Source: Amoebophrya sp. A120
Lineage: Eukaryota > Protista > Dinoflagellata
Assembly (NCBI GenBank): GCA_905178155.1
Contig: CAJINV010000019.1
Span: 786,988 to 850,987, forward strand
DNA length: 64,000 nt
Reading direction: 5' to 3'
Made by a program: the position numbers and the translations under genes. A model generated the notes under the pieces. That model was not told the DNA's origin, made no database searches, and saw nothing but the letters and a program-made list of their open reading frames with translations. Below are positions 679 to 63,009 of the stretch, piece after piece. Positions within the stretch are counted from its first letter, which is position 1; every line of letters starts with the position of its first letter.

Positions 679-2803
679 TCAAAACAAGACAGTATTTAGC
701 ACTTTTCTTTGGAGATGATTCTCGATAGACCGGGAGGCATTTGCAAGTGATAATTCGAAGAACTGTTCCTGCCCGAGAAATTCCGCCATCTCCGATGGTT
801 CCCCTGATGCCTCGTGCTTCCGTGTAGCGAATTTCTCTACCAATTGTGCGCCGGTCAGATGCTGCAGAAATTCGTTCTGGAAGTGGCGCAGAACTTTTTC
901 CTGTAAAGGCGCCAATTCTGAAGGACCAGGAAAGACGAAGACCGCGTTTATCCAAAGCTCTCTTCCTTGGTCTCCTGGTGGGGACAAGTTGTAGGTTCTT
1001 CTGAGATCGAAATTGAAGATTGTTCTGTCGAGTGTGAAGGATAGGCCAGGAAATATTTCCTGCGATGGCGTTCCACTGAGAGTGGCAGTTTCGTCTCCAC
1101 AGACAAACATCGAGAACGCAAAAAAAAAGTGACGGACCAGTTTGCGTGTCTCTGCGTTCTCAGTAAGCGTCTTGCCTTCGCCTCGCGGTTCCATAAGCAT
1201 CTTATGAAGAAATACGGTGGGGTTGCGAGCAAACCAAAGAGGAGTGCCCTCGTCGGTATTGGGTACGACTACAAGTTGGCGGCCCGCCTCGCCCTGTATC
1301 CTCTGCAAAAGTATCGTGCTCGTACTAGTCGCACAAATGCATGTCGACAGATCTGTAATACTAGCCTACTTCTAGATCTAGGGGAAACGAAAATTACAAT
1401 TATTACATTTCTTCTTTTGAAAAAAAAAGCGTATTAAGATAAAAAATTATACGATTCGTATTGAATACGATACTTTTGCAATGCATATCCCGCAGCGGCC
1501 CCAACTCATCGCGAGGCAAGCCGTCCGGCCCGGGAATTTTGGGTTCCGTCCAATCATTTCGGTTTTTCAAAAAACTTAGCTCATTTTCCAAAACGGCCGC
1601 AAAGTAATCAAAAGCACGTCTGCCCCCGGGGTCGCGCTCGGGTAAACGAAGTGCGTGGGCGATTAGTGCCGATTTTAGTTTACACATTAGCTCCACCATG
1701 TAACAGACCGAAAAAAGCATCCTTTCCAAGCCGTACAAGGTACCACCATCTGGCGTGTGCATCCGAGCATCCCCATCCTGGTCGCTCGGCACTCGAAAGA
1801 AAAACACGGGCTCCAAAACCCTTACAAACCGAGATACTAGTCTCTGACCCATTCCGTCGAGCATGCCAGTGAGTGCTGCATAGGTGAGATCAGTAGTCAC
1901 CGAAAATATGAGCTGTAGCTCAGATTCTACGAGAGGTTCCACCACCTCGCCCAGTGTTTTGTCTACAGCTTCCTCGAAGTCTGGATGACCAATGAGAGGA
2001 AGGAGTTCACCTCGATCGTGAAGATCGCTTGTTAGGGACTCCATACCAACTGCCTCCGCAGGCTTAGCCCAAGGGTTTGCTCCCAGACGAGACGTCAAAA
2101 ACGATTTCATGTGCATTTCGACTGTGTCTACCATCGACTTCAACAAGGCCTTGTCCTCGGTCCACTTCAGGTCTGTACCATGTTCCCGCATCGCGCGTCT
2201 CTTGTTCATTTCTTCTAGCTCTGGCCGTGTAACAGTAACATAAGCTGCGCCGCGGGCGGGCGTTTGCGTTTCAGAAGGTTCAGCACGAGCTACAGGTACA
2301 GTTTTCGGTAGACTTTCCACTGGTGGTTGTAGTTGTGCTACATCGACATGTTCTTGACTTGCAGCGACTGGCGCATTCACATTCTGGAGCGCGACGAGGT
2401 GGACGGGCCTGCCCATCTCAATCGTTTCTTCTGGCGATCCATGGCCATCATGTGAACCTTCTCTGGCGGCCCATTGACATCCAGCACCACCAGGACATGC
2501 GCCTCGCGACTTCTCCAGCTTTTTAGGGGGCTCGCGGAAGATTGCGTGCTTCCAACACTCAAACACATCATTTTTGTAAGCATAATCTTGTTGGTAGTCT
2601 GCATCGTCTTCGGATGCCTTTTTTCCAATGCTGATCCAGTCTCCAGTGCTGTCAACGAATACGGATGACCAGTCCAGGTGGATGCGCATTTGACTTTGAG
2701 ATGATTGAGCCGGGTCGATACGCATATTCTCGGTGGAGCGGCAAGATGAAGTCACGTCAACTCCCTTCAAGTCCTCGAACACGGGGCCGTCGAATCCAAA
2801 CAC
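679..2803 (-). CDS. Hypothetical protein, 2 exons joined across introner 1297-1487; start uncertain
   Basis: ORFs 1403..2803 and 679..1308 join in frame (…GPLR-[D/G]EAGRQ…) when the element plus one 5-bp repeat is removed; shares a motif block with the C-terminus of the 5940-9640 protein. Confidence 0.65.
1297..1487. mobile_element. Introner family B (TIR TATnnnnTGCAAAAGTATCGT)
   Basis: tatcctctgcaaaagtatcgt ... acgatacttttgcaatgcata; degenerate direct repeat ccctg/tcccg. Confidence 0.85.
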
Positions 2804-60500: not shown

Positions 60501-63009
60501 TTTCCATCCTCCATCTCCTCTGCCAAGATTTCTAACAATGTCACGTTCCCTCTCATCCACCTCCTGTTCAGATGACCTTTTGCAGATCGATTTCCAAACT
60601 GCTCGGTCGTGGTGGTTTCGCCGCCAATAAAACTGTTCGCCTTATTCTGTGCTTTCGCAGCATAATGAAAGTTACCGGAAGATGATTGCTGGACGAAGCC
60701 AGGACTGGGTCGTCCAACTGCATCCTGTAGAAGTCCAGTACTTCCTCTATCAGGATTGCCCCTACCCGACGAACTACCAGGGGTACGGTAGGTATTGTCG
60801 TCGCTCAACACATTGCGACCGCTTCCGTGATGAATCATCCCCGCTCCAGCAACGACCTGGTCCAGCTCGTCACAGCACGCACTGTTTTGTTCTTCATCCC
60901 CTTCTACTTCTTCATCTTCTCCAAAAACAAACTCTTTCAAAGCCGAAATCTGCCTTCGCAGTTCCTCGTTTTTCTGTTTCAAGTTGATGATTTCCGTGTC
61001 GTAGGCCATCTTTTCGCACTCCCAATTCTCCACTTTCACCGCCACAGACTCGGACAGCTCCGCGAACGCGAGCTCACATATGCATTGCAAAAGTATCGCA
61101 CTTCTACTCAAAATTGCAATACAGATTTCGATTTCTTTACCCAAAAGCAACAATTTGTCATGCTGATTCAGGTAAAACAAATATATCTGTCATGCCAGAA
61201 TAGCATTGGAATTTCTACGAGTTGTACGAAACTTTTGCACAACAGGATATCACAGTCCTTCACCCAGTTTTCCTGCTCCTGTTGGGAACACTTCAACTGG
61301 AGTTCCCGCTTCTCCAGCATCGCTGAATGGTATTGAAAGGAAAGACTCCCCCTCCCCATATCAACAAGGCCTGCTTCCGAAAATTTGTGTTGCTGATTTG
61401 AGGCCACAGATGGCGTCTGTCTTGCAAGCAGACAAGGGCAGAAGTTTCGCCCCCATTATGAAAGCGATTTGTCATGCTGGTGGGCCTAAAGGCGAGCCAT
61501 TTGCCATGTTGAACACCTAGACCGATACGCCCCTACCTAGCCTGGGCATCTGGCCGCAATGCCCTCCTGCAGTACAAAGCTGATTTGTGTACACAAATCC
61601 AGAAACAGAAATTTCCGCTTCGATATGGGGAGGGGGGATTTTTCCTTTCGATAAATGGTGCTTCAACTTCATGTCTTGCTCCTCGAACCGGAGTGCAAAA
61701 GCCTCAAATATCCTGTGCAAGAGTATTGTAATTGCAATCATGCATATACAAATCTTTTTCTGAAGGGAAATCCGCATTACAGATTTTATCTCTCATGCTG
61801 AGGAAATTTGTAATGCATTTATACGAGTACGATACTTTTGCAATTCATATCAAACTGCGCTCTCAGATCGCTGTCCTGCTCGTTGAACTTGCGCTCCAAA
61901 AACTTGTACAGCAAGTCGTTTCCAACAAGTGGAGGATCGGCGGCCACGACGCCGCGCGAGGTCGTGGTCCTCGTGGTGTAATCTGATGAAGAGGTAGTTG
62001 TGTGGAGCTGATGGTGATGTTGTCCCTGTCGCTCTGACTGGTTGATGATCTTCACATCCTGTTCTTCACGTAATTTATTGCCCGGCGAACGAGCAGGGCT
62101 CGTAGTTTGAAGCATTGTCCTTCTTTGGGCACCAGCTGCTGCTCCTGATGATGATGACTCACACTCATCTACTTCTTCTTCTTCTTCTTGCAGGTAATAC
62201 GTCTCGGGCGAAAGAATCACTGGGCAGGCAGTGGCAGAGCCGGCAGTCGCCACTGCCGTGTTACAACTAGTAGATGAGGGCGGGGTGCTGGAAAATGTTG
62301 CAGTTGCAGCAGCCTTCGTATATATTTTCGACTTCAACGGGGGCGCAGGAGCTGCGGCGGCAAGACCAAGAGTCGTGGCTTGTTTTGTCTTGTAGTTGCG
62401 GTGAGCGTGAGCGGTATTTTTCGGAGAATTATCTGCACTTCTGCCAGCAGCGGACCACGTCGAAGAATCCTCGTTGTTTTTCGATTTTTTGTTCGAACCA
62501 GATGAAGCTACATTTTGATTTTCTTTTTTCGAAGACGACGGACCGCCACTTTTCGTAGTTGATGCAGCTGTCCCCGCCGAATAAAGTTGATGCCGCGTCG
62601 ACGTGGGTTCTACGGGGTAAGAACTCGAAGTGGACATGTTGACGACGCCCGGTTCGCGAAGTTGGTGGTCTTCATCCTCGTCAAAGTCGGTCAGAAGGAG
62701 CCGCTCCGCGGGAGACAAGGGCTCTCTTCCTCTGTTTATGAACTGCAAAAGTAATATCGTACTCCTCGTCCTCGTATAAATGCACTACAAATTTCCTCAG
62801 CATGAGAGAAAAAATTTGTAATGCGGATTTACCTGCTCTCTAATGCATGATTGCAATACGAGCGCGATACTTTTGCACAGGATACTGTTCTGGCAGGGCG
62901 GCGTCGCTGCAGTTGTGGAGATCCCCTTCTTCGCATTTTTGCAGCCGATGGGAAACAGCGGGGACTCGATTTCACGCTCCTGCTCGGGGGAGCAGGAGGA
63001 ATCCAACAT
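54531..63009 (-). CDS. Very large hypothetical protein: central coiled coil, long disordered S/N/Q/G-rich termini; about 12 exons
   Basis: One frame traced from MLDSSC to VMAWR* across 8 introners and 3 GT-AG introns. Confidence 0.75.
54707..54972. mobile_element. Introner family A
   Basis: TIRs; perfect direct repeat gctgt. Confidence 0.92.
55031..55182. mobile_element. Introner family B
   Basis: TIRs; perfect direct repeat cgcgc. Confidence 0.9.
57904..58208. mobile_element. Introner family F
   Basis: TIRs; direct repeat taggc/caggc. Confidence 0.88.
58993..59150. mobile_element. Introner family B
   Basis: TIRs; perfect direct repeat cgtct. Confidence 0.9.
61079..61249. mobile_element. 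Introner family B-like
   Basis: TIRs; perfect direct repeat tcaca. Confidence 0.88.
61331..61653. mobile_element. Introner family E
   Basis: TIRs; perfect direct repeat aatgg. Confidence 0.92.
61709..61849. mobile_element. Introner family B
   Basis: TIRs; perfect direct repeat tcaaa. Confidence 0.9.
62737..62884. mobile_element. Introner family B
   Basis: TIRs; perfect direct repeat ctgtt. Confidence 0.9.

Follow-up and report, generated by a model that had tools for sequence, protein, structure and literature searches.

The window analysed here is a 64,000-nucleotide stretch of Amoebophrya sp. A120 (contig CAJINV010000019.1, positions 786,988 to 850,987, forward strand), whose genes are interrupted by short inverted-repeat elements that are removed from the RNA. 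The elements were found by an inverted-end scan for TAT...ATA, by a scan for a terminal inverted repeat (TIR) plus direct repeat with no TAT requirement, and then by an end-by-end catalogue. The catalogue holds 36 paired TIR elements, spanning window positions 1297 to 62884. They fall into seven TIR families (15 elements in A, 12 in B, 3 in D, 2 each in C and E, and 1 each in F and G); with an orphan right end at 46119, this agrees with the roughly 37 elements in about seven families given in a preliminary description of this DNA. Host genes lie on the minus strand wherever a frame can be called. Pfam matches bear out the aminotransferase, GTPase (MMR_HSR1) and DHHC genes named in that description, whereas the name WDR92, also given there, is unconfirmed, a 92-amino-acid fragment having no Pfam or PDB match.

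Thirty-four of the 36 paired elements have TAT...ATA termini; the exceptions, 46167 and 47031, are one duplicated copy that starts with GAT and has no repeat. Element lengths are 141–323 bp, the sole outlier (36013–38045, 2,033 bp) owing its size to a nested insert of 1,884 bp. Judged by their ends, some of the TIR families are related: the TIRs of C and F agree at 18 positions out of 27, while TAT-n7-AAA is common to A, B, D and G. The scan without the TAT requirement returned 52 clusters in the window, some of which are not these elements; three shuffles gave 2, 0 and 0. The elements are highly repetitive, with a depth of 1e4 to 2.7e5 in element bins against about 45 elsewhere in run X1, whose contigs are DNA-like. 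An additional TAT...ATA element lies at 327–594 (268 bp, repeat TTGTG/TTCTG), outside the range described before; its ends are similar to a metagenome locus (L018, 3314–3770) and it likely represents an eighth family.

The features are as follows, in window coordinates and with the strand of the host gene; RNA skips are the lengths, in nucleotides, missing from the RNA contigs discussed below.

1297–1487, minus: family B element; repeat with two mismatches
8941–9203, minus: family A element; perfect 5-bp repeat
9288–9523, minus: family C element; position-2 mismatch in the repeat, counted on the gene strand
10844–11141, minus: family A element; position-5 mismatch
13345–13579, minus: family C element in a WD40-like gene; perfect repeat
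19127–19292, minus: family B element; perfect repeat
23396–23714, minus: family D element; position-1 mismatch
23888–24148, minus: family A element; perfect repeat
24237–24409, minus: predicted in-frame GT-AG intron (GTATAG...CAG); interior of family B sequence without TIRs
30901–31064, minus: family G element; perfect repeat; one RNA contig piece stops at 30895
31133–31277, minus: family B element; perfect repeat
34611–34931, minus: family D element; RNA skip 326 (element plus 5)
34984–35245, minus: family A element; RNA skip 267; base 1 of the upstream copy retained
35303–35564, minus: family A element; RNA skip 267; base 3 of the upstream copy retained
35653–35967, minus: family E element; RNA skip 320; base 4 of the upstream copy retained
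36013–38045, minus: family B element, 2,033 bp; RNA skip 2,038; base 5 of the downstream copy retained
36121–38004, no strand: nested 1,884-bp insert; its own imperfect TIR of ~39 bp (ATAC...GTAT); no long open reading frame; a few copies per genome
38093–38354, minus: family A element, 93% identical to 35303, in opposite orientation; RNA skip 267
38424–38696, minus: family A element; RNA skip 278
38736–38881, minus: family B element; RNA skip 151; GT...CAG at the common register
41763–42014, minus: family F element, within the GTPase gene; joint 41757/42015 in an RNA contig, 257 (element plus 5)
43906–44157, minus: family A element; perfect repeat
46081–46119, no strand: orphan right end, family B
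46167–46426, no strand: family A copy, GAT start, without direct repeat; duplicate at 47031–47290
46428–46520, no strand: element-free copy of the 46539 and 46839 target; single TCAAA, single GTGAC; repeated at ~47292–47384
46539–46790, no strand: family A element; perfect repeat; duplicate at 47403–47654
46839–46983, minus: family B element; perfect repeat
47031–47290, no strand: duplicate of 46167–46426
47403–47654, minus: duplicate of 46539–46790
47703–47851, minus: family B element; same site as 46839; position-5 mismatch
51110–51376, minus: family A element in the DHHC gene
51849–52109, minus: family A element in the DHHC gene
54707–54972, minus: family A element; perfect repeat
55031–55182, minus: family B element; perfect repeat
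57904–58208, minus: family E element; position-5 mismatch
58993–59150, minus: family B element; perfect repeat
61079–61249, minus: family B element; perfect repeat
61331–61653, minus: family D element; perfect repeat
61709–61849, minus: family B element; perfect repeat
62737–62884, minus: family B element; perfect repeat

The insert at 36121–38004 contains two internal hairpins (36922–37171 and 37387–37685), and its X1 depth is 190–500 against 45.

Direct repeats were scored in 33 elements, leaving out 46167, 47031 and the duplicate 47403; 46839 and 47703, both scored, are copies of one site. The 5-bp repeat is perfect in 22 elements, has one mismatch in ten and two in one (1297), so that 32 of 33 fit with at most one mismatch. 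All nine sites previously named as imperfect are so, and 38736 and 1297 are added to them. As had been noted for most of the elements, GT-AG ends are unavailable at any register, the single element that can offer them being 38736; GA-AG is available at 1297 and GC-AG at 9288, and as a class the elements lack U2-type ends (GT-AG or GC/GA-AG). Excising the element plus 5 nt gives the longest open frame among +4, +5 and +6 in 27 of 33 cases.

An independent set was obtained by searching one metagenome assembly with the family A end pattern, which matched at least 142 stretches, of which 141 were kept (loci L001–L141). Family proportions in these loci are biased by the anchoring of the scan on the family A end, and the element finder was blind to the first seven bases. 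Among the matches listed, to which all counts for these loci refer, there are 253 paired elements representing all seven families, 228 of them with TAT...ATA termini. A flush 5-bp repeat is perfect in 187 of the 228 and has one mismatch in 23 (210 of 228 together), while repeat lengths of 2–4 and 6–9 stay at background. Moreover, two target sites in the window are present both filled and empty, the empty copies holding one 5-mer. Since the loci repeats peak at 5 and the window has these filled and empty sites, the 5-bp target duplication is solid. The filled and element-free copies of the two sites belong to an 864-bp tandem duplication (46060–47900) with a junction element that has no repeat. 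No shared orthologous genes were found between window and loci among 58 BLAST matches, and hence no cross-strain empty sites.

Removal from RNA is seen in contigs of runs X3, X4 and X6 (two samples, one study), which are presumed, though not recorded, to be RNA. These contigs skip all eight elements in the aminotransferase gene region (34400–39500), each by the element plus 5 nt (326, 267, 267, 320, 2,038, 267, 278 and 151 nt). They also skip a canonical 247-nt GT-AG intron (39052–39298), and we therefore take them as spliced RNA. One X3 contig, covering 34605–39296 in 529 nt, has exactly the length predicted if the GT-AG intron and the eight elements, each with 5 further nt, are taken out; an X3 contig also skips the family F element at 41763 plus 5 nt. 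Nine elements are thus skipped, eight of them with no GT-AG at any register, and the 2,038-nt removal is intact despite the 1,884-bp nested insert. The joined aminotransferase model is open for 774 codons, while retention of the elements would bring stops in all three frames in seven of eight cases and a frame shift in the eighth. X1 contigs, in contrast to the RNA contigs, have a flat depth of about 45 over unique sequence and run on into the elements. The element and exactly one repeat copy are removed at the RNA level, as had been proposed, and DNA-like contigs retain the elements. The raw RNA runs X9 and X10 contribute just 8 and 3 partial reads on the window and no read-level counts of cut position; six raw RNA reads of X9 join a family A end (38093–38354) to a flank absent from the window, even though X9 does not map to the genes of the window.

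The cut register was defined as the number of bases of the upstream repeat copy that are kept on the gene strand. The eight aminotransferase-gene joints allow registers 0–5, 1–6, 3–6, 4–6, 0–4, 0–5, 0–5 and 1–6, and the sole register compatible with all of them is 4, which would give introns of the form N-TAT...ATA-NNNN (1 nt before TAT, 4 nt after ATA). Five of the sites are informative imperfect repeats, belonging to families A, B and E, and their joint constraints leave one value. Removal of the left copy alone is ruled out at some site, and so is removal of the right copy alone; the cut therefore falls at an offset within the repeat, as the preliminary description had suggested. At register 4 the intron positions +2 to +4 read TAT; two RNA-verified canonical donors read GTATAG and GTAATT. 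The U2-type donor feature of U at +2 and A at +3 would be present if register 4 holds, which the five sites favour but do not prove. The only element with a possible GT-AG (38736) has GT...CAG at register 4, and the AG acceptor that 35303 offers at register 1 is excluded by the RNA. A single fixed 4+1 register is likely, but it stands as a lead and is not proven.

All seven elements that were folded form strong hairpins (z of −5.5 to −10.4), and both orientations occur in each of the nine subfamilies with at least four members. Elements 35303 and 38093, 93% identical and in opposite orientation, lie in one gene and are both removed. It is the element ends, rather than the order of the interior, that define the intron. 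The interiors nevertheless hold a motif, GCATNACA or GCA(T/A)NACA, that is common to all families and occurs in 210 of 210 listed loci elements, with 679 matches against a shuffled mean of 10.3 (maximum 19) and about equally on the two strands (329 and 350). Its density in the window is 9.9 per kb inside elements against 0.17 outside, and its copies base-pair in RNA folds. Among the matches listed, the first inward TGTN(A/T)TGC lies 41–45 nt from the end at 200 of 304 family A ends, 15 of 18 for C, 13 of 18 for E and 14 of 40 for D; at all six F ends (6 of 6) it lies at 53–54 nt, which is further in by about one turn of the helix. That the distance is fixed although the TIRs are dissimilar suggests that one protein binds them all, the transposase being the simplest candidate. 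Two GT-AG introns of the window have element-type interiors, 24237–24409 (a predicted intron; 86% over 91 nt, family B) and 39052–39298 (89% over 54 nt, locus L012), and by this similarity they are likely old, decayed elements turned canonical.

No transposase is present among 30 open reading frames of the window by Pfam. There is no evident autonomous copy at the 14 unpaired ones among 441 ends or at five long TAT..ATA pairs in the listed loci, where the open reading frames are without a Pfam scan, and the element pattern is absent from viral contigs. Farhat 2021 reports no transposase in A120 (PMC7789003). IS3EU/GingerRoot elements have TA..TA termini and usually a 6-bp target site duplication (TSD) (PMC10045372), and fungal IS3EU termini are given as TAYGG..CCRTA (PMC12730594). 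The elements here likewise have TA..TA termini (228 of 253 listed loci elements being TAT..ATA), and families C and E also end in TAYGG..CCRTA; a 6-bp duplication, however, occurs in 0 of 228 at up to one mismatch, against 187 perfect at 5 bp. As the 5-bp repeat departs from this IS3EU feature, the elements resemble IS3EU but are not filed there. In Gozashti 2025, family 38 is given with Copia/Gypsy-like open reading frames between its TIRs (PMC12130899), and we regard it as a candidate source of the mobilising activity. The single transposase superfamily proposed earlier has the common repeat length, termini and subterminal motif in its favour, but no transposase was found.

The element class is real but already known, and its rule is in print in essentials (PMC7789003). 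The introner identity given in the preliminary description is borne out by the only homolog of the 23080–23391 exon, which is from Amoebophrya sp. Ameob2 (85% over 74 amino acids); this match comes from another strain, and 1493–2869 has no annotated-protein match. According to Farhat 2021, the A120 inverted repeat families begin with TAT, seven variable nucleotides and at least three A, and have direct repeats of 3–5 nt (5 bp in the legend of Fig. S19); the introners are hairpins of ~240 nt with non-canonical borders and RNA-supported removal (PMC7789003). Window families A, B, D and G fit TAT-n7-AAA, C, E and F fit only TAT, and direct repeats, genome repetition and RNA removal without GT-AG are all found here. 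The TAT rule is therefore not new, being already in that paper. Where the text of Farhat 2021 has the cut position unknown and the repeat length variable, here the repeat is 5 bp and one register fits; the parts available mention no common internal motif, whereas one is present in all families here, and the intron limit used there was 40–1000 bp, whereas one removal here is 2,038 nt. Gozashti 2025 lists the A120 introners as TIR DNA elements of Unknown superfamily in 19 of 19 rows (19 of 58), with automated TSD calls of 2–5 and registers differing by family, and in the parts available states no single rule (PMC12130899). The introns of Fritillaria borealis are similar in having TIR and TSD, a transposon origin and non-GT-AG ends, and are handled by a modified spliceosome; euglenid nonconventional introns share the reliance on a terminal stem (PMC11282704). 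Fritillaria introns differ in preferring AG-AC and AG-AT ends, whereas here the target sequence, which is arbitrary, supplies +1 and the final four bases. A literature search, in which few subscription journals were covered, returned no paper that settles where the cut falls or that names the motif inside the elements; the papers available in part still cite the removal mechanism as open or merely restate Farhat (PMC11282704, PMC11453091, PMC12005148), and a term search of PMC13326754 gave no mention of Amoebophrya.

We favour, with a probability of about 0.58, the explanation that these are A120-type introners with TAT...ATA ends and a 5-bp duplication, removed from RNA with one repeat copy; the removal is probably the work of a relaxed spliceosome that uses the hairpin as a guide, and the register is probably the same throughout. 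Non-autonomous copies would have been spread by one integrase-type DDE transposase with a 5-nt stagger, which would bind the common GCA(T/A)NACA ~41–45 nt inside each end. The TIR stem would draw the intron ends together and N-UAU would substitute for a GUA(U) donor; each insertion, in either orientation, would then be a ready-made intron, and the target sequence would be restored exactly. The A120 spliceosome is near complete, with U2, U4, U5, U6 and 83 of 89 proteins but with U1 undetected (PMC7789003, section 10), and all nine leading A120 motifs in Table S4 of the same paper have T at +2. Because the register resembles a spliceosomal donor, we rate a relaxed spliceosome no less probable than a system of excision apart from it; the structure-guided excision proposed earlier retains its strong hairpins and orientation independence, but as a separate system it has this mimicry against it. 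A wider reading would have the A120 spliceosome disregard +1 as well as the entire 3' splice site and measure from the terminal stem (1 nt before UAU, 4 nt after AUA), would derive all TIR families from one 5-bp-stagger IS3EU/GingerRoot-like system with GCA(T/A)NACA, would make any insertion, in either orientation, a scarless intron, and would have A25 (TTA-RR, TT-NN) reach the same geometry separately; for A25, inverted repeats beginning with TTA and two purines and nine TT-NN motifs in Table S4 are on record (PMC7789003). We put this forward tentatively, as possible but with the odds somewhat against it.

Several points weigh against the favoured explanation. There is no transposase in hand for an origin from one transposase, and the usual IS3EU/GingerRoot duplication is 6 bp where 5 bp is found. 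The five informative sites lie in one gene, and random registers would fit a single one with P=0.51, so that the retained-base check once proposed for imperfect repeats, here done on RNA contigs, agrees with register 4 but also with chance; contigs moreover lose rare variants, and mixed cuts at one site are possible. The positions in Table S4 are aligner-derived and may be shaped by tie-breaking. At register 4, G stands at +1 in 17 of 33 window elements (p=0.003), but in the listed loci it does so in 57 of 205 (28%, with coding G at 27%), leaving the window excess unreplicated; there, 16 of 205 end in AG and 6 of 205 have GT-AG. As none of these is raised in the loci, there is no pull towards canonical sites, and the removal machinery is indifferent to +1 and to the last four intron bases. 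Strands in the loci were called with a codon model; the same model got 35303 wrong and found no minus frame at four sites of the window. The +1 G enrichment was accordingly rejected as support for a spliceosomal register, and a surplus of position-5 mismatches on the gene strand (12 of 31; 12 compared with 6 at the mirror position, p=0.24) was set aside. The codon effects of 21 listed loci mismatches (10 synonymous, no stop) do not fix the register.

The alternatives differ mainly in what makes the cut and where. A non-spliceosomal, structure-guided endonuclease and ligase, measuring from the TIR stem with a fixed 1+4 offset as proposed for euglenid nonconventional introns, would suit the lack of selection for +1 G or terminal AG in the loci, the strong terminal stems and the orientation independence; U1 is undetected in A120 (PMC7789003), and euglenid introns have a comparable asymmetric stem (PMC11282704). 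Yet the common register sets TAT exactly at the TA(T) of canonical donors, a family B interior within the predicted GT-AG intron 24237–24409 suggests one machine for both, and U2, U4, U5 and U6 and 83 of 89 spliceosomal proteins are reported to be there (PMC7789003); we consider such a system unlikely. More doubtful still is a hairpin-defined intron in which the cut position shifts along the repeat between sites, with nothing fixed but the removed length of element plus 5 nt. The five sites are compatible with random registers at the P given above, Farhat 2021 calls splice sites variable relative to the hairpin (PMC7789003), and the table of Gozashti 2025 has opposite registers for different A120 families (PMC12130899); published placements inside perfect repeats are, however, inherently ambiguous, and the constraints of three families (A, B and E) close on one value.

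Two further readings deny splicing altogether, and we give both very little credence. A hairpin with direct repeats is the classic setting for template-switch artefacts, and the evidence for removal is wholly cDNA-based; the skips might thus be reverse-transcriptase switches over the hairpin between direct repeats, with real mRNAs retaining the elements. Against this, in each run one contig leaves out all eight elements, no alternative being listed at a 30% share, the skips include one of 2,038 nt and sites with just 2–3 matching letters, and retained elements would interrupt or shift the frame in every case. Excision from DNA at some life stage, in the manner of ciliate internal eliminated sequences, with RNA copied from the edited template, would account for the element-free copies of two target sites (46428–46520). 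However, X1 contigs pass from exon into element at flat depth, no element-free X1 joint is present among the joints listed (1,010 more being unlisted), and the empty copies are explicable as duplicated pre-insertion or cDNA-derived sequence.

Other features of the window lie apart from this argument. An intergenic block at 15390–18345 is possibly another transposon: close to each end it carries many CTTTTCTCCTTT(G) repeats, oriented oppositely at the two ends, and its interior has tandem arrays. On the minus strand, 39298–40884 encodes a La domain fused with an aminotransferase class I/II domain (Pfam), and 23080–25190 encodes a Lys/Met/Pro/Ala-rich protein with a C-terminal EF-hand, for which the only homolog found is again that of Amoebophrya sp. 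Ameob2.

More than 60% of A120 introns are removed without GT-AG, and how this happens is given as open in the literature (PMC7789003). Imperfect repeats make the question directly testable on existing RNA-seq data and, as 23 of 228 listed loci elements have one mismatch, thousands of informative sites are expected genome-wide. The internal motif offers a way to the transposase or the splicing factor still missing, with GCATGACAA as a putative binding sequence. A fixed N|UAU...AUA-NNNN| register, if true, would define the substrate of removal and would point to a spliceosome with no requirement for G at +1 or at −1.

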